64,000 nt of DNA from Candidatus Zambryskibacteria bacterium RIFCSPLOWO2_01_FULL_39_39 (GTDB taxonomy: Bacteria; Patescibacteriota; Minisyncoccia; Phycocordibacterales; WO2-35-19), in the NCBI GenBank assembly GCA_001823925.1, contig MHWB01000009.1, positions 25,086 through 89,085 on the forward strand, read 5' to 3'. The position numbers and the translations under genes were made by a program. This document shows positions 4,135-64,000 of the stretch, one piece after another; the first letter of the stretch is position 1, and each line of letters begins with the position of its first letter. Under the pieces are notes generated by a model. It was not told where the DNA came from. It did no database searches and saw only the letters and a list, made by a program, of their open reading frames with translations.

Positions 4135-5007
4135 TTATTTTGCACACCAGAGGGCAAAAATAGACATAGGTAGGAGTCTGGTTGAATTCTCCTGTTTTAT
4201 GACAAGCTCGCCTGATTCAATTCTACCATTCAAACCTTTTGTCGTGTCTCTAAGTAAATTAGCGACAGATAAAGAAGAGAGTTCGGTAGCATACATATTG
4301 AAAATCACGAAAAGTGGCTCATCACTCAAAATTTCTCGGCAAGCTTTCAAAAGTTCTGGCAATTTTTCTTCTATTTTCCAAATCTCCCCCTTTGGCCCTT
4401 TTCCAAACTGAGGCGGGTCCATAATCAGGCAGTCGTATTTTTTACCCTGCCTCTTTTCTTTATTTATAAATTTAAGAACATCATCTAATATCCAACGGAT
4501 GGGAGCGTCTTCTAATTCGGATAGTTTTTGGTTTTCTCTTGCCCAATCAATGCTAGCTTTTGAAGCATCTACGTGAGTGATTCTCGCTCCCGCCCTTGCT
4601 GCCACCAAACTGGCGATTCCTGTGTAGCCGAATAGGTTTAAAACATTTAAACTATTCGGAATTTTCAATCCGTTCAACAAGCTCAGGACAGGTTTAGAAT
4701 TTTCAGTTTTCAATTTTTCTGCAATCCACTGCCATTGCGATATTTGCTCTGGGAAAATGCCAATATGTTTTGAACCACTTTTAAATTTTATTTTGGCTTT
4801 GACTCCTTCAAAAATATCTACAATCGTCTCTAAAACTGTTTCTGTATTTCTCCACTCATTTTCTGACAATTCTCTTTTCCACCAAGCTCTCGGCTCGGCT
4901 CTCACAATCCTTACTCCCCTTATTTCCTCCAGCTTCTTTTTATCCCCACAATCCAAAAGCTTGTAACCTTCCATCTCCCCCGCCCATATTTTGGTTGAAT
5001 CTTGCAT
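4135..5007 (-). CDS. class I SAM-dependent RNA methyltransferase (RlmI/RlmK-like)
   Basis: 290 aa with a GYTGIASL SAM-binding glycine motif and the DPPQF motif. Confidence 0.55.
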   Translation of the reverse strand: MQDSTKIWAGEMEGYKLLDCGDKKKLEEIRGVRIVRAEPRAWWKRELSENEWRNTETVLETIVDIFEGVKAKIKFKSGSKHIGIFPEQISQWQWIAEKLKTENSKPVLSLLNGLKIPNSLNVLNLFGYTGIASLVAARAGARITHVDASKASIDWARENQKLSELEDAPIRWILDDVLKFINKEKRQGKKYDCLIMDPPQFGKGPKGEIWKIEEKLPELLKACREILSDEPLFVIFNMYATELSSLSVANLLRDTTKGLNGRIESGELVIKQENSTRLLPMSIFALWCAK

Positions 5008-6952: not shown

Positions 6953-8626
6953 TTAATTTATTGGAAGTTCGATTGTAAAGGTAGTCCCCTTGCCTACTCC
7001 TTCTGACACCACCTTAATATCACCCTGATGGGCTTCTGCCATTTTTTTGGCTATATATAAACCTAGACCGGTGCCGATGACGTTGGTTTTGCTGGCGTCT
7101 TTGGTTCGAGAAAATTTACTAAATAGTTTGTTTATTTCACTAGGGTCAATACCAACTCCGCTATCTTTGACCGCTATCTTTACCTGCCTAACGGCAGGCA
7201 GGTTTTTATTTTCATCTTCAAATACAGAAATTTTAATACTGCCATGGATTGTGTATTTCACTGCATTATCAATAACGTTACCGATCACCTGTTTGATTTT
7301 ATTCCTATCAGCATTTATTTTGGCAGAAAAATTGAATGGCTCTAATTCCAAAGACAAACCTGCATCTAAAATATTTGGTTTAAGTTCATTTGCCACTTCT
7401 TTTACAAGCTCTCCTACATCAAAGATACTTTTTTCATAAACCATCCTGCCTTGCTCAATCCGCGAGATGTTTAAGAAGTCCCCGACTATATTTATCAAAT
7501 TTTGGCAAGATTTTCTAATAGTCTCTACCGAATCCTTTGCCTTCTGTGGTAATACGCCAAAATCACCCTCCAAAAGCATTGAGGAGTAGCCCTTTATGGC
7601 GGTGAGTGGCGCCCTTATTTGGTGGGTGGCAAGCGATAAAAACTCTGACTTTAAATTATCCAACTCCCGCAGTTTTTCATTTGCCCTCTCAAGATCCTTC
7701 GCCAACACTTCAATCTTTTCCCTTTGTTCTACCTCCCTTTTTACCGAGCGGACTAATAAAATTCCAACGATAAGAAATAGAATCAAAGTAAGAGAAACAA
7801 TAATTCTTACGTTATTTATATCATTTACAAAAAGTACAGCACAAAGTGCAATCCATAAAGCCGTTATTAAAGCTTGAGTTCCGATTAGTTTGACATTAAA
7901 TGTTTTAAATTTGACTATTGAATAAACTAAAAATCCGGCAAATATAGGCATTCCAAATAATCCATACTGACCCAATTCCCAATTCTCTGTAAAACTTCCT
8001 ATTATATTTCCCCATGCGAAAGCAAATAAAAATAACACGACACCAGTAGAAAGGGAGAATATTTCTTTCCGATTCAAATTTCCTGGCTTATGAAGTTTTC
8101 GTATTGAATACCCAATAATTATTATGGTCATAAGAATTTCTACTGCATATGTATAGTAGAGAGCTATTGGACCCTCTACGCTAAGGCATGTAGAAATATC
8201 AAATCCTGACAAACTGTACTTTGTTGGTACAAAAATTAGCAGTGGCGTATAAATCAAAAATAAAAATAATTTAGAAATAAAAGGTAAATCTTTCTTTTCC
8301 AAAAATAAATATAGTAAATAAAACCCCCCTATATATACTAATGGCTCAATAAGTATAATAATAGACCACACAAACATTACCACATCACTTCTATTGCTTG
8401 CCCAAAAAATTGAATCTAAAAATACCCATAGAGCAAAAGTGATTATGGTTACAAAAAGAACCCTATTTGGAATGGAGTTTTTATTCTGAAAAAATACAAA
8501 AAAAGCTAACAAGAGAGAAATTATAATTATTGGTAAATGAGAATAGTAAACTAGTGGAGCGACATCTGCACCAAACAATAACCATTTTGGTCCTTCAAAA
8601 TTACACAATTCTATTAAAGTTTCCAT
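6953..8626 (-). CDS. sensor histidine kinase with a multi-TM N-terminal domain
   Basis: 557 aa. The HisKA H-box (LSLATHQIRAPL) and HATPase_c motifs (DSGVGI, GTGLGL) follow about 8 TM helices. Confidence 0.8.
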   Translation of the reverse strand: METLIELCNFEGPKWLLFGADVAPLVYYSHLPIIIISLLLAFFVFFQNKNSIPNRVLFVTIITFALWVFLDSIFWASNRSDVVMFVWSIIILIEPLVYIGGFYLLYLFLEKKDLPFISKLFLFLIYTPLLIFVPTKYSLSGFDISTCLSVEGPIALYYTYAVEILMTIIIIGYSIRKLHKPGNLNRKEIFSLSTGVVLFLFAFAWGNIIGSFTENWELGQYGLFGMPIFAGFLVYSIVKFKTFNVKLIGTQALITALWIALCAVLFVNDINNVRIIVSLTLILFLIVGILLVRSVKREVEQREKIEVLAKDLERANEKLRELDNLKSEFLSLATHQIRAPLTAIKGYSSMLLEGDFGVLPQKAKDSVETIRKSCQNLINIVGDFLNISRIEQGRMVYEKSIFDVGELVKEVANELKPNILDAGLSLELEPFNFSAKINADRNKIKQVIGNVIDNAVKYTIHGSIKISVFEDENKNLPAVRQVKIAVKDSGVGIDPSEINKLFSKFSRTKDASKTNVIGTGLGLYIAKKMAEAHQGDIKVVSEGVGKGTTFTIELPIN

Positions 8627-9673: not shown

Positions 9674-9802
9674 TTATTCTAACGCGGTACCATCTTCAAT
9701 GTAAAAATCCTTATCAACCGTTGTTCTTTTATATGTCATTACTACAGACACTATAATAGAGATAAAAAATATAGTTATTAAAATTTTTGATTTTTTATCC
9801 AT
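9674..9802 (-). CDS. small single-TM protein (42 aa), hypothetical
   Basis: ATG at 9800-9802; reads MDKKSKILITIFFISIIVSVVMTYKRTTVDKDFYIEDGTALE. It stops 4 nt before the start of the 196-aa membrane protein. The six-frame ORF track (60-aa minimum) does not list it. Confidence 0.25.
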   Translation of the reverse strand: MDKKSKILITIFFISIIVSVVMTYKRTTVDKDFYIEDGTALE

Positions 9803-9849
9803 TTGAATATTTTAATCCCCTCTTAATAAAATTATGTTCTATATCTTGC
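9803..9849 (+). repeat. direct repeat copy 1 (duplicate of the speH 3' end)
   Basis: About 47 nt with roughly 85% identity to 11089-11135; the core cccctcttaataaaattatgYtctatatcttgc is identical apart from one Y position. Confidence 0.6.
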
Positions 9850-9984
9850 CTGTCTGGTTTTAATATAACTCTTGGATTATTTTTGTCAACTATCAAAACT
9901 CTCTAGCCACAACACCAAAATTCAAACACACTTTAATTATACAGTAAAATCTATCCTCTAACAAAATTTTTGTTTATAAAAAAA

Positions 9985-10780: not shown

Positions 10781-11080
10781 AACCCATCCTTGGATTGAAA
10801 TTCAGCTACCGAGAGCTGCCTACTCTTTAATATACTCTTTTAAATTATTCTGTCAACTCTATTACGCATATCTCTATGACAACAAAATATTATGTGCTAA
10901 GCTTTATAACAGACCAAATCGTAGTTCTTGAAGATCACAACAAGGTACATTCCGCAAAGTAAGGTAGTATGAAGAAATATCCAATCTGTCCTCCGACTCC
11001 AGTCCTGCCGTCGTAACCGAAAGGGGCGTTCACATGTGTGCGCCCCTTAAATATATATGATAAAGAAAAACAAAAATTTT

Positions 11081-11458
11081 TTAATCGTTTGAATACCTTG
11101 TCCCCCTCTTAATAAAATTATGCTCTATATCTTGCAGGTCAAACTTTTCTTTAAAATAATTTAATATAAATTCATTATCCATTCCGTTTTTGCAGGTATA
11201 AACATCTGCACTTAAAAACCCGTTATCTGGAAAGGTATGAATACTTATGTGGCTTTCGGCAATGACTACAAACCCGCTCCAACCCCCCGGATCCTTCTTG
11301 TCATTGTTTGGTGCAGAATAAACAACCGGCTCAGCAAGTTTGTGCATTCCTAGCTGTTCTGGAAGTTCATTTAGACATTCTAATACTAGCTCTTTGTTAT
11401 TGAGTTTTTCTTTTGATCCACCATATCCGTCTATTGTCAGATGTTCTCCAAAGTGCAT
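11081..11458 (-). CDS. speH: S-adenosylmethionine decarboxylase proenzyme (archaeal-type, SpeH)
   Basis: 125 aa with the ESHISIHTFPD processing and active-site motif. Confidence 0.8.
   Translation of the reverse strand: MHFGEHLTIDGYGGSKEKLNNKELVLECLNELPEQLGMHKLAEPVVYSAPNNDKKDPGGWSGFVVIAESHISIHTFPDNGFLSADVYTCKNGMDNEFILNYFKEKFDLQDIEHNFIKRGTRYSND
11089..11135 (+). repeat. direct repeat copy 2 (native speH 3' end)
   Basis: Matches 9803-9849; here it encodes ...DIEHNFIKRG of SpeH. Confidence 0.6.
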
Positions 11459-14674: not shown

Positions 14675-14829
14675 TTTTTACAAAATATTTATACTAAATT
14701 ATAGAATAAAATTAGGATATGTTGTAAAATCTTGTGGATAAGGTGCTATTGACATTTGTGTTAAAAGTATTATTATAATAATTAGAACAGCCAAGCTGGC
14801 TGGCACATTGAAATAGAGGAGGAAGAAAG

Positions 14830-30062: not shown

Positions 30063-30134
30063 TAATAAAAAACAAAAACTACTATTCCTGCGTTAGGTCA
30101 TCAAGGATAAGGCTCTTGGAACAGTAGTTTTTGT
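30063..30134 (-). terminator. long hairpin downstream of alaS (21-bp stem, 29-nt loop) followed by a T-run
   Basis: AAAAACAAAAACTACTATTCC pairs with GGAACAGTAGTTTTTGTTTTT (one mismatch). Confidence 0.4.
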
Positions 30135-30137
30135 TTT

Positions 30138-31979
30138 TTATTCTAGTATTGCTTTAATACGGCGGATGCCGGCAGAGACAGCCTCTTCTTTAACAATTTT
30201 AAAAGTCCCAAGTTCTGAAGTATTTTGTATGTGTGGACCTCCACAAAATTCTTTTGAGTAAGCTTCTTCTAAGGATGGACCTATAAAATAAACAGAAACT
30301 TCATCTCCATATTTATCTCCAAAAGCATGGACCGCGCCGGTTTTTTCGGCATCAATCTTTTTCATTATGACTTTATTTACTGGTAGATTTTCAGCAATTT
30401 TTTGGTTTACGAGATCTTCCACTTTTTGTTTTTCTTCAGCGGTTAGTTTGCTGTCGTGATTAAAATCAAACCTGAGGCGTTCAGCCGTGATATTGCTTCC
30501 TCTTTGCATAACCTTTTCTCCTAAAACATTCTCCAATGCTTGGCGTAAAAGGTGTGTGGCGGTGTGAAGTTTTTTGGTCTCTTCTCCTGCGTCCGAAAGT
30601 CCACCCTTAAACATGCCAGCAGAAGAAGTGCGCGAGAGCTCTTGGTGTTTTTTTAATTCCTCATCATATTCTTGATTAAACTGATCACTTATTTTTAGAT
30701 GTGTTTTAAAATATTCTTCACTATTCTGTTTTTCTTTCAAAATATCAAGGAATACTTCCTTTGGAAGACCAAAAGATGAGAAAAACCAAAAAGCATTCAA
30801 TCCGGATATTATACGGGTGTAGGCATCTCTTATAGAATATCTTTTTTCAAATTCTTTAAGCCCATTCTCCAAAGTCTTTTCAAATTTTTCTTCTTCCTGA
30901 GACAAATTAGCAAAAATAAAATCTTTATTTTTAGAGAGTTCCGAATAAACATCTTTGTATATTCCTATTACTACTTCTGCTATTTCTTTGGTGAAAGATT
31001 TTAGACCAATTTGTTTGCCGTATCTGACAGCTCGTCTGATAAGTCTACGCAAAACATATCCCTGACCCGTATTAGAAGGAGTGATTCCCTTCTCATCTCC
31101 CAAGATGAATGTAGCTGCTTTCAGATGATCAGCAATTATACGCATCGCTTTAATATTTTCACCTTCATATTTTTTATCAGAAAGTTTTTCCATTTTTTCT
31201 ATAATTGGCCAAAATAAATCAGTTTTATAATTATCGTCTAAACCGTTCATAACCGTAAGTGTCCGCTCTAGTCCCATACCCGTATCAACATTTTGCTGTG
31301 TTAATAGTGCAAATTTTCCTTCTGTAGTTTTGTTGTATTGCATAAAAACATCATTCCATATTTCAAGCCATTTTGAGTTGTCGTCATTAAAGCTCTCGGG
31401 CACCTCTTCGCCCGCTTGCCCTGAGCTTGTCGAATGTGTCCAGTAAAACATTTCAGTGTCTCCACCGCAGGGGCCCGTCTCTCCGGCTGGCCCCCACCAA
31501 TTATTCTTCTTTGGCAATTTGGCAATTCTTTTTTCGGGAATACTTAAACTTTTCCAAGTCTCGTATGCCTCATTATCAAAAGGTGCGTCACTGTCCCCCG
31601 CAAAGACAGAAACGGCCAATCTATCCTTATCTAGTCCCAACCATTTTTGATCAGTTAAAAATTCATAGCTCCACTCTATTGCTTCTTTTTTAAAATAATC
31701 GCCGAGTGACCAGTTGCCGAGCATTTCAAAAAAAGTGTGATGAAAGCTATCACCAACTTCTTCAATGTCCCCTGTCCTAATGCATTTTTGAACATCTACA
31801 AGTCGTACTCCTAGCGGATGTTTTTCACCTAAGAGATATGGTACCAAGGGGTGCATGCCGGCAGTCGTAAAAAGTACCGTTGGATCATTTTCGGGCACAA
31901 GCGAAGCGCTCGGGATAATCTTATGTCCCTTCCCTTCAAAAAATTCCAAATATTTTTTTCTAATTTCTTCCGAGGTCAT
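30138..31979 (-). CDS. alaS: alanyl-tRNA synthetase, short form lacking the C-terminal C-Ala domain
   Basis: 613 aa. An AlaRS catalytic N-terminus runs into the editing domain (HTATHLL...CGGPH), and the protein stops there. Confidence 0.85.
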   Translation of the reverse strand: MTSEEIRKKYLEFFEGKGHKIIPSASLVPENDPTVLFTTAGMHPLVPYLLGEKHPLGVRLVDVQKCIRTGDIEEVGDSFHHTFFEMLGNWSLGDYFKKEAIEWSYEFLTDQKWLGLDKDRLAVSVFAGDSDAPFDNEAYETWKSLSIPEKRIAKLPKKNNWWGPAGETGPCGGDTEMFYWTHSTSSGQAGEEVPESFNDDNSKWLEIWNDVFMQYNKTTEGKFALLTQQNVDTGMGLERTLTVMNGLDDNYKTDLFWPIIEKMEKLSDKKYEGENIKAMRIIADHLKAATFILGDEKGITPSNTGQGYVLRRLIRRAVRYGKQIGLKSFTKEIAEVVIGIYKDVYSELSKNKDFIFANLSQEEEKFEKTLENGLKEFEKRYSIRDAYTRIISGLNAFWFFSSFGLPKEVFLDILKEKQNSEEYFKTHLKISDQFNQEYDEELKKHQELSRTSSAGMFKGGLSDAGEETKKLHTATHLLRQALENVLGEKVMQRGSNITAERLRFDFNHDSKLTAEEKQKVEDLVNQKIAENLPVNKVIMKKIDAEKTGAVHAFGDKYGDEVSVYFIGPSLEEAYSKEFCGGPHIQNTSELGTFKIVKEEAVSAGIRRIKAILE

Positions 31980-36846: not shown

Positions 36847-37584
36847 TTATTTTATCGCGTTAGCAACTGAATTTATATAGGAACAATACGCACACTCTGG
36901 AGCAGATTTTGGTAGTTCTTCTGCGTCTAAACATTTTTTCATATCTAGAAGTGTTTTTTCTATCCATTTGCCAGAGCCAATATAAGGAATAATTTTGACA
37001 TCAAATTCTAGCCTGCCGTCAAAAAATTCTCTATCTCTTTTGCCGTTGGCATATACGAAATAACCAGTGTCAGAAACTTCTAGATCGTTGTGCCTCAGGA
37101 GCCACTGATAAACTTCCATTTGTCTTTTGTATCCATCTTGCCACTCGGCGTCCAAGTTTACCTCTGTTTCTTTGCTGGTGGCTTTGTAATCAACCACTAT
37201 AAGTTTCCCATCTTTATCTATCCAAATATCATCTACGGCGCCAAAAATTACAAAATTGGCTGGCTCAAAAAACGCTTCTACCCCGGTAAAATTTTCTCGC
37301 CATTTATCCATTCTAGCGTCTGCGAAAGGTATAGCATCTATGCCATAACTTTCCATCAAAGGGTGGGGTGTTTTTTGTTTACGATAAATATCAAATTCTT
37401 TTTTAAGTAAAGTGTCTACGGCGCTATTTAGATTAAAAGGGAAGCCTTGTGGGCGAGAGACTCCAAGCCTTCTGTCTAAATAGAAACACCTCGGGCACTC
37501 TACAAACAAGTCAATCTTTGACCTGCTTATTTTAAAAAACTCCTTCGATTTTGGGTCATAAAGTTTTTTTCTATACCAAGCCAT
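36847..37584 (-). CDS. PD-(D/E)XK nuclease, Cas4/RecB-like, with a 4-Cys cluster
   Basis: 245 aa with GAVDDIW, VVDYKAT and QMEVYQW motifs. There is an N-terminal CPRC and a C-terminal CAYC. Confidence 0.6.
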   Translation of the reverse strand: MAWYRKKLYDPKSKEFFKISRSKIDLFVECPRCFYLDRRLGVSRPQGFPFNLNSAVDTLLKKEFDIYRKQKTPHPLMESYGIDAIPFADARMDKWRENFTGVEAFFEPANFVIFGAVDDIWIDKDGKLIVVDYKATSKETEVNLDAEWQDGYKRQMEVYQWLLRHNDLEVSDTGYFVYANGKRDREFFDGRLEFDVKIIPYIGSGKWIEKTLLDMKKCLDAEELPKSAPECAYCSYINSVANAIK

Positions 37585-37585
37585 T

Positions 37586-38422
37586 CTATTTTTGTATTAG
37601 ATTAATTTCCTCAAGCATTTTGGTAATTTTTTCTTGTGAGAGACCGGCTTGGCGCAAGATGTCGGGATTGTCACGAGCCTGTTTGCAAAGGACTACACCA
37701 GCTTGCATCAGAAGCTTTTCGTCGCTTGGAGTGCTACTGTTTAAACAAGTGATTGGGTGAAGCCCCGTCTCTTCTATCAAATCTTGCAGATTGCCTTGCT
37801 CCGGATAATTCCAACCAACTAATTTCATATTTCTACATTTGGCGTACTTCACCGCAGATTCTGAAAATTTGGTATTAGTTACCAACCAACCTTCATTGAG
37901 TTTTCTTTCACCCCCAAAATCAAAGATTTCTTTCTCCAAATCTTCCCACCTGGCTTTGACATAAAGCGCCACTTTAAGATCGGATTTTATACCGAGTTCG
38001 TTATGAAATTTGGCCTCCATCATTATGAGTTTTTCTTTATTCCAAGCGACAATATCTACTTCGTGTTCAGCGCATTGTCCCTTAGCGATGAAATCAGTCT
38101 GGGTTTCAAATCCCTTGGCTCGGAAGATTTCGGCCACAAATTGTTCAAATGGGAAACCAGTCGGGCCGAGCTCCATCACCGCTCTCCTCAAAGAATATCT
38201 GGCTGCATATTTTTTACCACCATCTTCTCTGCCCAAAAGTTCAAAAGCGTGTCTGTAAATATCTTTGGTGGTGGCATTGTCTTTGAGCTCTTTTTTTATT
38301 TGCTCTACAATATTATCAATCGTCACTTGGTCTGCTCCCGCTCGCCTTAAAGAGTCTTCTAGTTTTTGCGGGTTAAACTCCTCTCTTTCCCCAGTCGCTT
38401 TTATTATGTATTTGTTATTCAT
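37586..38422 (-). CDS. ATP-cone domain fused to an Mrr-like restriction endonuclease domain
   Basis: An N-terminal ATP-cone (KYIIKATGEREEFNPQKLEDSLRRAG) is followed by an Mrr_cat-like core (FEQFVAEIFRAKGFET...EHEVDIVAW...MEAKF). Its start overlaps the mnmA stop (ATGA). Confidence 0.5.
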   Translation of the reverse strand: MNNKYIIKATGEREEFNPQKLEDSLRRAGADQVTIDNIVEQIKKELKDNATTKDIYRHAFELLGREDGGKKYAARYSLRRAVMELGPTGFPFEQFVAEIFRAKGFETQTDFIAKGQCAEHEVDIVAWNKEKLIMMEAKFHNELGIKSDLKVALYVKARWEDLEKEIFDFGGERKLNEGWLVTNTKFSESAVKYAKCRNMKLVGWNYPEQGNLQDLIEETGLHPITCLNSSTPSDEKLLMQAGVVLCKQARDNPDILRQAGLSQEKITKMLEEINLIQK

Positions 38423-39567
38423 TGAGTCATTATAGCACCACCTAAGCATATTTCTCCATCGTATAAAACCAAAGACTGCCCCGGAGAGACTCCAATTTGA
38501 GGTTTGTCAAAAATTACTTTTGTTCCGTCGCCTGAAATTTTAATTTTGCATCCGATTTTTTCTTGACGGTATCTGATGCGACAAGACAGATTTTTATTAT
38601 TGATTTCTTGCGTAAAATTAACATCTTTTAATTTTATTTCTTTACTTAACATTTTTAACGATCGTTTTAAATGTTTAGATGCGACTGTAATGGTATTGTT
38701 TTTAAGATTTTTTTCTACTACGTATAAAGGCACTTCCTGATTTGATTTCTGGGTAATAGTAAAACCGTGGCGCTCTCCTATTGTAAAAAATAGCGCTCCA
38801 TTATGATTGCCGATTATTTTGCTTTTGTCGTTTAATACACTTCCCATTTTTGGTTTTATATATCTTGATAAAAATTCTTTCATGTCAATTTGCCCTAAAA
38901 AGCAAAGACCTTGGCTGTCCTTTCTTGTTGCTTGAGGAAGCCCAAACTGTTTGGCAAGTTTGCGGACTTCTTCTTTTTGCAAGTGTCCGATGGGAAATAA
39001 AATATGTTTTAGTTGTTTTTGGGTTAAAGTCCAGAGAAAATAACTTTGATCTTTATTTTTATCCTTTCCTTCCAAAAGAATCACCTCACCCCCCTGCCCT
39101 ATCTCATAACTTCCCCTACCCCCTCTTACCTTAAGAGGGGGAAAGATCTGACAATAATGTCCTGTCGCCACAAAGTCTGCTCCATTTTTCAAAGCAAATT
39201 TCAAAAAGTGTCCAAACTTTATTTCTTTGTTGCACATTACATCCGGATTAGGAGTCTTACCCTTCCTATACTCTTCTATCATATAATCCACGATTTGCTT
39301 CTTATATTCTTTTTCTAAATCCAAAGTAATGAAAGGAATATCCAAGACTGCAGCCGCACGCATTGCACTTCGCCTGTCATCCTTCCATGTGCAAGGGTAA
39401 CCTTCTGGTGTCCAAGCTTTTATAAAAACCCCAGTTACATCGAATCCATCTTTTTTTAAGAGCGCCGCCGACACAGCCGAGTCTACTCCTCCTGAAAGCC
39501 CTACAAAAACTCTTTGATTTCGCTCAGAGTGAACTTTTTGTTTAGGTTTAATATCATTGCTTTTCAT
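38419..39567 (-). CDS. mnmA: tRNA 2-thiouridine synthase MnmA
   Basis: 382 aa with the PP-loop SGGVDSAV and the downstream catalytic cysteine region. Confidence 0.85.
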   Translation of the reverse strand: MKSNDIKPKQKVHSERNQRVFVGLSGGVDSAVSAALLKKDGFDVTGVFIKAWTPEGYPCTWKDDRRSAMRAAAVLDIPFITLDLEKEYKKQIVDYMIEEYRKGKTPNPDVMCNKEIKFGHFLKFALKNGADFVATGHYCQIFPPLKVRGGRGSYEIGQGGEVILLEGKDKNKDQSYFLWTLTQKQLKHILFPIGHLQKEEVRKLAKQFGLPQATRKDSQGLCFLGQIDMKEFLSRYIKPKMGSVLNDKSKIIGNHNGALFFTIGERHGFTITQKSNQEVPLYVVEKNLKNNTITVASKHLKRSLKMLSKEIKLKDVNFTQEINNKNLSCRIRYRQEKIGCKIKISGDGTKVIFDKPQIGVSPGQSLVLYDGEICLGGAIMTQ

Positions 39568-61542: not shown

Positions 61543-62595
61543 ATGTTTTATCAAAAAGTTTTAAAACCCATACTTTTTAAGTTTGATCCAGAAAAAGTGC
61601 ATAATCTAATTGTTTTTTTAGGTCCTTTTTTGGGAAAAAGTTTTGTCCTAAGAAAATTAGTTGCCCTTTTTTATAAATACAAAGGCAGAGATATTTCAAA
61701 AACGATTGACGGTTTAACCTATCGGACCCCCTTTATACTTTCGGCCGGTTTTGATTACAACGGTAAGCTCTTAAACATTTTGCCAGAAATATCTTTTGGA
61801 GGTGTGGAGGTAGGTTCTATTACCGCCAGAGCTTGTCTGGGAAACAAAAAACCTCGTTTGACTCGGCTTCCAAAATCACAGAGTATTATCGTCAATAAGG
61901 GACTGTGTAATGATGGAGTGGATGAAATTATCAAGCGACTTAAAAATTATAAAAGGAGAAATGATTTTGTAATCGGCATTTCTATTGCTCGAACCAATGA
62001 TGAAAAAGCCTCGGCAGTAGAAGAGGGCGTTCTAGACTATTTTTATAGTTTTAAGAGATTAAACGAAGAAGATGTTGGCGACTATTATACTCTAAATATT
62101 TCTTGCCCGAATTCTTTTACTGGAGGAACTTTCACTAATCCAGCGTTACTTTCGCTATTGCTTTCGAAAATTTCTTCTATCAAATGTCACAAACCGATTT
62201 ATATAAAAATGCCTATAAATTTGGAGTGGCCAGAGTTTGATAACTTGCTCAAAATAATAGAAAAATTTGAAAATATCAAAGGAGTAGTTATAGGGAATTT
62301 AAACAAAGATTATAATTCCTTAGATTTTAAAATAGAAGTACCAAAAAAATTTGGGGGTGGTTTAAGTGGCAAGCCGTGTTTTGAAATTTCAAACGAATTA
62401 ATCAAAAAAACCAAGGTTACTTATGGTAATAGGTTTACTATTATTGGTTGTGGTGGAGTGTTCTCTTCCAAAGATATGATTTCAAAATTTGAGGCTGGAT
62501 CGGACTTGGTGGCTTTAATAACCGGTATGATTTATAATGGACCGGGGCTTATAAAAGAGCTTTCAAATCATTATGCAACCTCACATGAATACTAA
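61543..62595 (+). CDS. pyrD: dihydroorotate dehydrogenase
   Basis: 350 aa with TIM-barrel DHODH motifs (GGVEVGSIT, IIGCGGVFSSKD). Confidence 0.7.
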   Translation: MFYQKVLKPILFKFDPEKVHNLIVFLGPFLGKSFVLRKLVALFYKYKGRDISKTIDGLTYRTPFILSAGFDYNGKLLNILPEISFGGVEVGSITARACLGNKKPRLTRLPKSQSIIVNKGLCNDGVDEIIKRLKNYKRRNDFVIGISIARTNDEKASAVEEGVLDYFYSFKRLNEEDVGDYYTLNISCPNSFTGGTFTNPALLSLLLSKISSIKCHKPIYIKMPINLEWPEFDNLLKIIEKFENIKGVVIGNLNKDYNSLDFKIEVPKKFGGGLSGKPCFEISNELIKKTKVTYGNRFTIIGCGGVFSSKDMISKFEAGSDLVALITGMIYNGPGLIKELSNHYATSHEY

Positions 62596-63334
62596 AAAAG
62601 CATTGTTAATTATAGTTTTAGTGATAATAGCGGGTGCTTTAACCTTCTTTATTTCTAAGTCTAGAAGCAATTATTCCCAAACGGCAACTTCTACTCCAAA
62701 AGTGGAGGAGGGCGGTTTACATACTGGTATCCAAATCAAACCAGAACTGCCGGGGCAAACTCTGCCCTTCTCCAATGATCCCAAAGATTTGGCTTGGGCT
62801 GTTTTCCAAAAATATTTGGGGTATAACAAAGACCAAAATTTGGAAGGTGTGAGGGGTGTTGTTTATAAAGTAGCTTCTGTTTGCGAAGATCCCAAAACCA
62901 CTATTGATTGCAAGGCGAGAATGAATCTAGCTTGGGAATACGGCAATGTTTTAAAAAAGGAAGATTTTGTAAATGTCTGGGAAGATAGCAAACAAATTAT
63001 TTTAGCAACTGATTTTAAAACAAGAGAAGATGATAGTATTATTGGTCGCGATAGATCCATCATATTTTTTGTGAGAGATGAAAATAAAAACTTAAAAATG
63101 TTGAGCTTTAGCCCTTTTAAAGGTGTTATTGTAAACAAGGGCACTGCGTCCCAAGAAGAATTAAATGATAGGATTGTTCGTTATACGGAAGATAAAGATA
63201 AGGACGGTATAGCGGATTATGATGAAGAATGTCTAGCGGTCAAAGAAGGGCAAACTTGCACCCAAACAAATCCAAAAATCCGCGATACTGATGGTGACGG
63301 TCTCTGGGATGGTATAGAAGCGTTGATTCAATAG
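62585..63334 (+). CDS. membrane-anchored protein with C-terminal thrombospondin-type-3-like Ca-binding repeats
   Basis: N-terminal TM segment and C-terminal DKDKDGIADYDEE...DTDGDGLWDG. The start is uncertain (62573 or 62585). Confidence 0.45.
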   Translation: MNTKKALLIIVLVIIAGALTFFISKSRSNYSQTATSTPKVEEGGLHTGIQIKPELPGQTLPFSNDPKDLAWAVFQKYLGYNKDQNLEGVRGVVYKVASVCEDPKTTIDCKARMNLAWEYGNVLKKEDFVNVWEDSKQIILATDFKTREDDSIIGRDRSIIFFVRDENKNLKMLSFSPFKGVIVNKGTASQEELNDRIVRYTEDKDKDGIADYDEECLAVKEGQTCTQTNPKIRDTDGDGLWDGIEALIQ

Positions 63335-63377
63335 TTTACAAATTAATTTATAGTTGCTATTAATTTCGTTTCAAACA

Positions 63378-63411
63378 CTTAACAAATTAAACGATCGTTT
63401 AATTTGTTAAG
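63378..63411. repeat. perfect 34-bp palindrome (17+17), putative operator copy A
   Basis: CTTAACAAATTAAACGA|TCGTTTAATTTGTTAAG. Confidence 0.7.
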
Positions 63412-63429
63412 TAGCGAAATTTGGAATAC

Positions 63430-63927
63430 TTATCTTTTGCTAATTTGATAAGGTTTTGCCAATTTGAATGTTTTTATGTAAGTATACAAATCCATCTCTT
63501 TTAAATGAGCACCAAATTTTTTAGGTAAAGGGCTTGGGCCGACCCAAACACTTTTTTGAATCATAGAATATTGAAATTCTCGGAGATGCCATCTGAGCCA
63601 ATTTCTCTCAGCTTTTCTTGATTCGGGGATATCAAACATAAGTAAAAGATTTTTTGGAGCGTTGAGAATAAATGGTGAATGGAATTTTAGCGATAATTTT
63701 CTTTTATTTTCACAATATTCCTTACCTTCTTTGGTGAGAATCCATTTCCCCGATTTTATTTCTACCAGTCCATTTTTTCGTAATCTAGACATGGTACTAT
63801 GAAAGGAATTTTTATTGTGCTCAAATGGTTTTGGTATCCCAAGTAAATTTACTCGCATTCCTTTATAACTCAAATGAGTGTTCCAAAGGTCTTCTAGTAT
63901 TTCCATTACAAGACTCATAATATGCAA
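63430..63927 (-). CDS. winged-helix DNA-binding protein with a C-terminal Cas2-like/PaaX_C-like domain (putative regulator)
   Basis: 165 aa with a wHTH (NGLVEIKSGKWILTKEG). The C-terminal LLLMFDIPESRKAERNWLRWHLREFQYSMIQKSVWV resembles the Cas2/PaaX_C fold pattern. Confidence 0.4.
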   Translation of the reverse strand: MHIMSLVMEILEDLWNTHLSYKGMRVNLLGIPKPFEHNKNSFHSTMSRLRKNGLVEIKSGKWILTKEGKEYCENKRKLSLKFHSPFILNAPKNLLLMFDIPESRKAERNWLRWHLREFQYSMIQKSVWVGPSPLPKKFGAHLKEMDLYTYIKTFKLAKPYQISKR

Positions 63928-63946
63928 TTATATCACCTGTCACACA

Positions 63947-63984
63947 GACTTAACAAATTAAACGATCGTTTTATTTGTTAAGTC
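63947..63984. repeat. 38-bp near-perfect palindrome (19+19, one mismatch), putative operator copy B
   Basis: GACTTAACAAATTAAACGA|TCGTTTTATTTGTTAAGTC. It shares the core of copy A. Confidence 0.7.
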
Positions 63985-64000
63985 TGCTAGCTTTAACATT

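Follow-up and report, generated by a model that had tools for sequence, protein, structure and literature searches.

Why is a single small gene in a Patescibacteria chromosome enclosed by two copies of one palindrome, and what do these sequences do? The question was raised by a 64-kb window of Candidatus Zambryskibacteria bacterium RIFCSPLOWO2_01_FULL_39_39 (64,000 nucleotides of contig MHWB01000009.1; all coordinates refer to this stretch unless a related locus is named). The source is a groundwater metagenome-assembled genome, and the proteins of the window have their nearest named relatives in Candidatus Zambryskibacteria, Paceibacterota and the Patescibacteria group. In this window, a gene for a protein with a winged helix and a Cas2-like domain, here called mini-PaaX, lies between a 3′ palindrome (D) and a 5′ palindrome (U). 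A preliminary description of the window had suggested an autoregulated cassette or a small mobile unit. We compared the locus with related metagenome loci (designated by L-numbers, such as L001 and L058) and consider it fairly probable that the protein is a dimeric autorepressor whose own gene is bordered by two putative operators, with a small number of sites elsewhere.

The palindromes, the promoter and the encoded protein

D (63377–63412, no strand) is a perfect palindrome of 36 bp, ACTTAACAAATTAAACGATCGTTTAATTTGTTAAGT, with the arms ACTTAACAAATTAAACGA and TCGTTTAATTTGTTAAGT. It begins 17 bp past the stop codon of the mini-PaaX gene and 43 bp past that of the downstream neighbor, a convergent gene for 253 amino acids (62573–63334). 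U (63945–63986, no strand) comprises 42 bp with one T/A mismatch and has its dyad between 63965 and 63966; 26 bp separate its end from the ATG, and it starts 67 bp past the stop codon of a co-directional upstream gene. The latter gene lies past the window end and was read in L001; it encodes 393 amino acids, and its stop codon is 134 bp before the ATG. Both palindromes had been described as perfect and 34–38 bp long. Their coordinates and sequences held, as did the perfection of D, but both proved longer and U imperfect. The mini-PaaX gene itself (63430–63918, minus strand) encodes 162 amino acids from the ATG used in public gene calls and most homologues; the open reading frame of 165 amino acids first reported for it (63430–63927) is present, but its TTG start is only the mechanical one.

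A consensus scan predicted a sigma-70-type promoter on the minus strand at 63927–63956, with 10 of 12 consensus matches. As observed, the −35 box, TTGTTA (63951–63956), lies within the gene-proximal arm of U. An 18-nt spacer separates it from an extended −10 element, TGATATAAT (63927–63935), in which TATAAT is accompanied by TG one base upstream. Between the −10 box and the ATG there are 8 nt, so the mRNA would be leaderless or nearly so.

One explanation that does without the protein is that the palindromes are mere RNA or DNA hairpins, serving as terminators or mRNA-stabilizing 3′ hairpins. RNA folding agrees with this, as both form stable hairpins (−20.8 kcal/mol for D and −25.2 kcal/mol for the other) with z below −5, and so do the positions of D between convergent genes and of U after a co-directional gene. 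However, the two stems are AT-rich with a CGATCG center and no T-run, and a terminator scan called neither of them as an intrinsic terminator, which would have a GC-rich stem and a U-tract; the usual terminators of the related genomes differ in having GC-rich stems with A/T tails. The earlier view that the palindromes do not resemble terminators was thus supported. In addition, the spacing between U and the ATG is constant, and the −35 box is part of U. An Rfam search of the window gave no match.

Profile searches placed the protein between two known families. Pfam PF20803 (PaaX_M, named "PaaX protein central Cas2-like domain") matched residues 95–157 with 51.7 bits against a cut-off of 24. 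Pfam Cas2 (PF09827) reached 20.2 against a cut-off of 23.8, and a winged-helix family (HTH_45) matched weakly, both being sub-threshold. The NCBIfam Cas2 model (TIGR01573) gave 22.8 bits against 24.5, and the PaaX equivalog (TIGR02277) gave 19.2 bits against 264.55, covering profile positions 22–149 of 279. PADLOC returned Cas2 models only, and weakly, and Cas2 sequences of the Protein Data Bank (PDB) matched at E = 0.26–0.77. The AlphaFold model (mean predicted local distance difference test score 81.6, and > 90 over residues 81–150) shows a helix-helix-hairpin winged helix at residues ~1–78, with helix 36–48 followed by hairpin 52–61, and then a beta-alpha-beta-beta-alpha-beta domain of Cas2-like ferredoxin fold at residues ~88–157. 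In a Foldseek search against the PDB, E. coli PaaX (8a39) came first with a probability of 0.98, followed by M. tuberculosis Rv0674, many Cas2 proteins and VapD; the structural matches also included the winged helices of PaaX and LmrR. The protein therefore has domains one and two of PaaX but lacks domain three, hence "mini-PaaX", and in the strict sense it is neither PaaX nor Cas2. The winged helix and the Cas2-like fold suspected from the window were borne out, except that the C-terminal half corresponds to the central domain PaaX_M and not to PaaX_C.

The family comprises 1,171 clusters at E ≤ 0.001, and PF20803 was present in 120 of the 120 homologues listed. In the Cas2-like half, the motifs MFD.PE, ER.W.R.HL and Q.SVW.GPSPLP are invariant. 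The domain starts with LLLMFDIPE...ER..LR..L, similar to type II-A Cas2, and its invariant Asp aligns with what we take to be the catalytic, metal-binding Asp position of Cas2. Mini-PaaX thus has in common with Cas2 and VapD the ferredoxin-like fold of its C-terminal domain, but it falls below the curated Cas2 cut-offs, and the domain is fused to a winged helix. Several members are named "Cas2" or "PaaX" in public records, and the "Cas2" labels look like over-annotation. A link to CRISPR appears unlikely: the 64-kb window contains no CRISPR repeat array, and none of the listed neighbors of the homologues carries a cas Pfam label, although the window's own proteins had no dedicated cas1 search. 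Similarly, paa catabolic genes were found at none of the loci examined.

The matches to the VapD and Cas2 nucleases also suggest a fused toxin-antitoxin-like module, in which a VapD/Cas2-like ribonuclease joined to an autoregulating DNA-binding domain would act in addiction or stress. The conserved residues are acidic and basic, many paralogues occur per genome, and the layout is autoregulatory, as is typical of such operons. However, a partner gene is missing and the neighbors differ at every site; the best match of the whole protein is the repressor PaaX; and the genes are stably inherited at conserved positions. We consider such a module very unlikely.

Layout and co-variation of the flanking sites

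Palindromes were sought within 200 bp on either side of each gene copy in 79 metagenome loci and several long contigs. Upstream of most close homologues was a palindrome of 26–48 bp whose end lay 13–31 bp from the start codon; its sister near the stop codon lay between 11 bp ahead of that codon and about 26 bp past it. A position matrix was built from these sites, and its threshold was set to give 0–2 matches in shuffled data over 0.81 Mb. Of 21 non-redundant homologues with ≥ 65% identity to the query, 20 had U, 19 had D and 19 had both sites. The consensus half-site, read toward the dyad, is aACAAATTnnaCGA. Each of the four half-site classes preserves ACAAAT (positions −13 to −8) and CGA (−3 to −1); variation is seen at positions −7 to −5 and farther out than −14.

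The position of U relative to the gene was also conserved. In ~30 homologues the dyad mostly lay 43–47 nt before the ATG, so that the gene-proximal arm provides the −35 box: this arm contained TTGTTA, TTGTCA or TTGGCA, and TATAAT or TACAAT followed 7–9 nt before the ATG. D sites often had ACATTT...AAATGT where U has ACAAAT...ATTTGT. This variant abolishes the TTG of the −35-like box, which fits a protein-binding site without a promoter role.

Each gene has a private version of the palindrome, such as CTGCAGGTGCAG in L080, CTCTGCCATGGCAGAG in L065 and GTGCGACCGCAT in L048. Over the central 28 nt, the mean identity was 81% between U and its own D and 55% between U and the D sites of other genes. 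Of 17 U sites, 9 had their own D as the best match, and 13 had it among the three best. When orthologues at one syntenic site were compared, the palindromes had diverged between genomes, and U and D agreed within each; for example, the L106 orthologue of the window copy has CCTAACAAATTTGACGGCTGTC... on both flanks. A hairpin needs self-complementarity alone, so the agreement between U and D together with the conserved bases suggests one sequence-specific reader of both. The match of U to its own D, and the conservation of ACAAAT and CGA across paralogues, therefore add to the evidence against mere hairpins, an explanation that we regard as unlikely. Together, the family-wide layout, the co-variation of the flanks and the −35 box inside the gene-proximal arm of U support the earlier impression that the palindromes are operator-like.

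Two similar sites of ~28–36 bp with a 6-bp center and symmetric arms, enclosing a gene that is present in some genomes and absent from others, could alternatively be core sites of a host tyrosine recombinase, with the gene as cargo. Known pdif sites bound small gene modules on Acinetobacter plasmids in this way. However, the outer conserved block lies 8–13 bp from the dyad, and the arms are longer than those of the 11-6-11 Xer layout. A single recombinase would require sites of one type, but paralogues of the same genome have different sites. Furthermore, the location of U, over the −35 box and at a constant distance from the ATG, links it to expression of the gene, the positions are stable over long divergence, and the cargo is always the same protein family. 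Recombination sites of this kind are, in our judgment, very improbable. A Xer/dif-like site was also rejected on its sequence: D-type arms contain ATGTTAA, as does the XerD arm, but 4 bp further from the center than in dif.

A distant homologue in L011 (174 amino acids, 35% identical) lacks an upstream site of the family type. There, two palindromes of the form TTAACAAAT...CGATCG...TTGTTAA (L011:3914–3946 and 4571–4610) surround the next downstream gene, which encodes 147 amino acids. In this variant of the layout, the flanked gene is a neighbor. The neighbor genes of the family loci include DHODH, a cohesin/dockerin-like cluster, PGI, ROK and others.

Sites away from the genes, and inheritance

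A third family-type palindrome lies at 38645–38678 (no strand), in frame inside mnmA (38419–39567, minus strand). It shares 27 of 34 positions with the 34-mer; 300 dinucleotide-shuffled versions of the window yielded no site with 8 or fewer mismatches, their best having 10, indicating that the mnmA copy is far beyond chance. The site encodes KHLKRSLKML and is of the ACATTT...AAATGT variant that is usual at D sites. Its RNA folding is weak (−6.5 kcal/mol, z = −1.9), and its conservation despite this is a further argument against mere hairpins. When 19 mnmA orthologues were aligned, 8 had the peptide (K/Q)H(F/L/I)(G/K)R(S/P)S(K/Q)ML at the site; the others had unrelated sequences of various lengths there, indicating a variable loop. 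The site was kept in orthologues from other genomes and genera with 67–75% protein identity.

At the DNA level, four mnmA orthologues were compared and the palindrome was present in all four. Its left and right arms are AAACATTTAAAACGA and TCGTTAAAAATGTTA in the window, AACATTTTGGACGA and TCGTCTAAAATGTT in L100, AACATTTGGGACGA and TCGTCCCAAATGTT in L104, where they form a perfect 28-mer, and CTACAAATTAAACGA and TCGTCCAAAATGTTG in L099. All four use CGA TCG for the central Arg-Ser pair, even though AGA, AGG and Ser codons other than TCG are frequent in these genes. Between L100 and L104, one position had changed on both arms (T to G and A to C); this exchanged F for L and K for Q and kept the symmetry. 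These alignments indicate that the palindrome is under DNA-level (or RNA-level) constraint within the coding sequence. It had been described as a degenerate third copy; an in-frame copy it is, but it is conserved in orthologues and hence not the remnant of a decayed site. Of the three mini-PaaX paralogues of GCA_043799105.1, one (P0026) has a U half-site that agrees with the left half of that genome's mnmA site at 16 of 18 positions, among them the outer ATCTAC, and the right half of the window's mnmA site has the outer ACTTAAC in common with the flanks of the mini-PaaX gene. These half-site matches are suggestive only.

Two further observations concern mnmA. Downstream of it, in the window (36847–38449) as in L099, L100 and L104, lie a gene for an ATP-cone and Mrr-like nuclease-domain protein and then one for a PD-(D/E)XK protein; next, outside the window, is a uracil-DNA glycosylase gene. 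The palindrome is ~200 bp upstream of this gene set and might affect its expression. Within mnmA, at 39050–39150 (residues about 143–165), orthologues differ by short unrelated inserts that are often Gly/Arg-rich: PLKVRGGRGSYEIGQGG in the window, and SPQSRRGRGEAR, LLNQGEGDAKRG or KLPKKVLEKSLACATRRPEDFSERSF in orthologues. At two further spots, LAPRSFSGVG- or LAPYSFSGAG-like motifs occur in some orthologues and not in the window. This pattern suggests that short GC-rich elements have repeatedly been inserted in frame into genes of these genomes.

If the palindrome were a generic dispersed repeat, it should occur in dozens of copies independent of the gene. In the window, the 17-mer half-site had 4 matches with at most one mismatch and 7 with at most three, compared to 0.61 expected, and 0 of 100 shuffles reached 7. 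The three palindrome copies form the top direct-repeat family of the entire window, and they remained three when 10 kb past the window end (from L001) was added. When 0.81 Mb of non-redundant related loci was scanned with the family matrix, 94 sites lay no more than 130 bp from a family gene and 6 lay farther away, with 0–2 expected from the null. These numbers, 94 gene-adjoining sites against 6 others, indicate that the palindrome is not a repeat of the repetitive extragenic palindromic (REP) or miniature inverted-repeat transposable element (MITE) type, and the near exclusiveness of the sites to the mini-PaaX family also speaks against mere hairpins. A search for long palindromes in 0.94 Mb of loci gave 84, of which 43 lay within 120 bp of a family gene; the remaining ones were mostly GC-stem hairpins with A/T tails, i.e., ordinary terminators. 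Locus-specific 28-mers with at most seven mismatches revealed two extra sites only. A scan of a genome collection that excludes the source genome, with half-site plus center, gave 12 matches, mostly unrelated.

The few sites away from the genes are varied. In L064, a third copy of the cassette palindrome (14731–14786) has perfect 28-bp arms, A/T-rich tails and one mismatch to its own U; its neighbors are a folA-like and a kinase-like gene in convergent orientation, and the mini-PaaX gene is 4.2 kb away. In L058, a perfect 38-bp palindrome of the family type, AATGACACAAATTCTGCCATGGCAGAATTTGTGTCATT (6955–6992), lies in frame within pgk. It encodes NDTNSAMAEFVSL, so that 13 codons stand where seven orthologues have 7 (SGNKLIN), a gain of 6 codons; the L058 mini-PaaX gene is without such palindromes of its own. 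A family-type palindrome is also found 60 bp past pgk in L076. In-frame palindromes in housekeeping genes, as in mnmA and the pgk of L058, resemble the Rickettsia palindromic elements, which are numerous in-frame insertions of 100–150 bp in genes. Those described here are, in contrast, 28–38 bp long and very few, and the mnmA one shows no obvious length change and is conserved between genera.

A pattern search also found strong family-type palindromes in contigs of Saccharibacteria and Patescibacteria (L009:6015–6050 and L012:2864–2900), with no mini-PaaX gene within about 2–6 kb, the span of these 8-kb loci. One is upstream of a dnaX-like gene and the other just before the ATG of a gene for a 771-amino acid membrane protein; they may be chance matches or remote regulon members.

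We then considered how the gene is inherited. In many genomes it occupies the same syntenic site, although an all-against-all comparison showed the flanks to be only 66–90% identical, which indicates mainly vertical inheritance. Paralogues within one genome were 65–77% identical, no closer than copies of different genomes, so recent copying is not apparent; GCA_043799105.1 has three and L016 has two within 6 kb, and each paralogue carries its own palindrome sequence. No near-identical second copies of the cassette were seen, and a scan of viral contigs found no member of the family. L015, L016 and L019 have a common block (Mur ligase, PBP, MreC, MreB, tRNA synthetase, M50 peptidase and RRF) in which the mini-PaaX gene is present or absent at two intergenic sites. 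When filled and empty sites were aligned, the differences exceeded the unit, took in other DNA and showed no duplications. At the site orthologous to that of the window, L106 has DHODH, a gene for 242 amino acids and then a convergent mini-PaaX gene whose product is 82% identical; in L105, both the mini-PaaX gene and its neighbor of 242/253 amino acids are missing, and the DHODH stop codon is 2 bp from the next gene. Thus, the cassette is absent from some relatives, but not through a cassette-sized loss, since it belongs to larger gains and losses. With the genes mostly at conserved positions, recent mobility is unsupported, and the proposed small mobile unit found no positive support.

Nevertheless, palindrome, gene and palindrome may form a small mobile or repeat-associated element, in which the Cas2-fold protein would be a nuclease acting on its own palindromes and sometimes installing copies elsewhere, including inside genes. 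Several paralogues per genome, the presence or absence of the gene at otherwise syntenic sites, the palindromes inside coding sequences with the 6 added codons of the L058 pgk, the L064 copy 4.2 kb from its gene, and the invariant Asp at the Cas2 catalytic position are in its favor. It would resemble a REPtron, in which each copy of a small gene is bracketed by its own version of a short palindrome. The REP-associated tyrosine transposases (RAYTs) of such systems are HUH/Y1 transposases, and REPs reach tens to hundreds of copies per genome. Here, in contrast, the protein is a winged helix with a Cas2-like fold and ~6% of the sites are away from genes. Pfam, NCBIfam and fold searches of mini-PaaX gave PaaX_M, Cas2 and winged-helix matches only and no HUH/Y1 transposase; an HUH or tyrosine motif as in RAYTs or IS200 was not visible by eye, no model search having been made. 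The divergence of within-genome paralogues, each with its own palindrome, the unchanged syntenic sites between diverged flanks, the filled/empty differences that are never cassette-sized and lack target duplications, the ratio of only 6 in 100 sites away from genes, and the empty viral contigs all count against such an element, which we consider unlikely. On the same grounds, candidates of this kind had been set aside: an insertion sequence or MITE, because the paralogues are 65–81% identical and thus without near-identity, the syntenic indels are not cassette-sized and duplications are missing, and a mobile cassette as the main explanation, because most copies are syntenic and the indels never have its size.

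A related and, in our view, unlikely possibility is that the protein and its private 28–40-bp palindromes constitute a low-copy self-associated repeat system, REPtron-like or a single-unit precursor of a repeat array, in which a Cas2-like domain takes the place of an HUH transposase. The protein would recognize, and perhaps cut or copy, the palindromes, which would sometimes be installed in frame, as in mnmA and pgk. If this were true, installed copies would persist as protein-bound roadblocks that shape transcription in regulator-poor genomes.

Two other repeats were observed in the window. A 65-nt direct repeat (9790–9854 and 11076–11140; 83% identical, 1,286 bp apart) may mark similar upstream regions of two neighboring paralogous genes. 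An inverted repeat at 30064–30142, with 25-nt arms that are 96% complementary and 29 nt between them, is AT-rich with A/T runs at its outer ends and is unrelated to the mini-PaaX palindrome family.

Proposed autoregulation and its meaning

According to the autorepressor mechanism that we propose, a small dimeric mini-PaaX would bind two-fold symmetric sites of 28–40 bp flanking its own gene. U would be the primary operator, placed over the −35 box of a promoter predicted to be strong, from its near-consensus −35 and extended −10 elements, and to give a leaderless mRNA. On the predicted promoter, this placement would be the classical repressor geometry: protein on U would cover the −35 box and exclude RNA polymerase, resulting in negative autoregulation. 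Occupied U would also stop read-through from the co-directional upstream gene. D would be a second operator and may help repression by looping the ~570-bp gene; alternatively, D would be bound as a roadblock, insulating the gene and ending transcription of both convergent genes. It is possibly also an RNA 3′ hairpin. The extra sites, here the one in mnmA, would form a very small regulon.

Several observations weigh against this mechanism or parts of it. As for D, its RNA hairpin of −20.8 kcal/mol has z = −5.4, so that its role may be that of a hairpin, and the third copy in L064, with its A/T tails between convergent genes, looks like a bidirectional terminator built from operator sequence, as would also be expected of mere hairpins. 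The pgk palindrome is poorly explained by point mutation toward a binding site; together with the perfect long palindromes inside genes, it keeps a mobile or repeat element alive at low probability. Among homologues 50–57% identical, both sites were detected in 15 of 41 and neither in 21 of 41; however, the matrix is biased to CGATCG centers, so the site counts at this identity are minima. Gene conversion between the two sites could also account for the co-variation of U and D. An analysis of the mutual information of protein columns with operator positions was uninformative: the Cas2-like domain, taken as a control, scored as high as the winged helix, which indicates that the signal is shared ancestry. 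Finally, D96, E99, E104, R105 and H111 of the Cas2-like domain are invariant, and a catalytic role of these residues is possible.

Known repressors offer partial parallels to the proposed autorepressor. PaaX is a dimeric repressor of phenylacetate catabolism that binds palindromic operators overlapping promoters, and its Cas2-like domain is, to our knowledge, not known as a nuclease. PaaX of E. coli W (PDB 8a39), the best structural match, likewise has an N-terminal winged helix followed by a Cas2-like domain. Mini-PaaX, however, is half the size, is without the PaaX C-terminal domain and has no paa genes nearby, and its putative operator is longer (28–40 bp) and stands on both sides of the regulator's own gene. 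The closest analogy for possible cooperation of U and D would be the immunity region of phage lambda. There, cI lies between the OR and OL operator sets, one of them over its promoter, and a loop formed by CI tightens autoregulation. CI has an unrelated fold, and the locus described here has a single site per side instead of three, ~570 bp instead of 2.4 kb between them and a chromosomal rather than a prophage location; looping would be an extension of the analogy. In literature searches we found no description of the family, its operators or the flanked layout; the domain itself is catalogued in Pfam, and the proposed mechanism is conventional.

Genomes of the Candidate Phyla Radiation (CPR)/Patescibacteria are tiny and have few recognizable regulators, and we know of no CPR/Patescibacteria regulator with a mapped operator. 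The present locus offers a candidate regulator-operator pair, which is testable, for bacteria that cannot be grown. The comparative data effectively annotate its cis-sites: a promoter, a putative operator over the −35 box, a second one at the 3′ end and rare intragenic sites. Many "Cas2" labels in CPR genomes are probably wrong. The mnmA palindrome, with a symmetric change that cost two amino-acid substitutions, is a clean example of DNA-level over coding constraint. Moreover, the family provides a natural series of diverged protein/site pairs, in which the drift of DNA-binding specificity may be studied.

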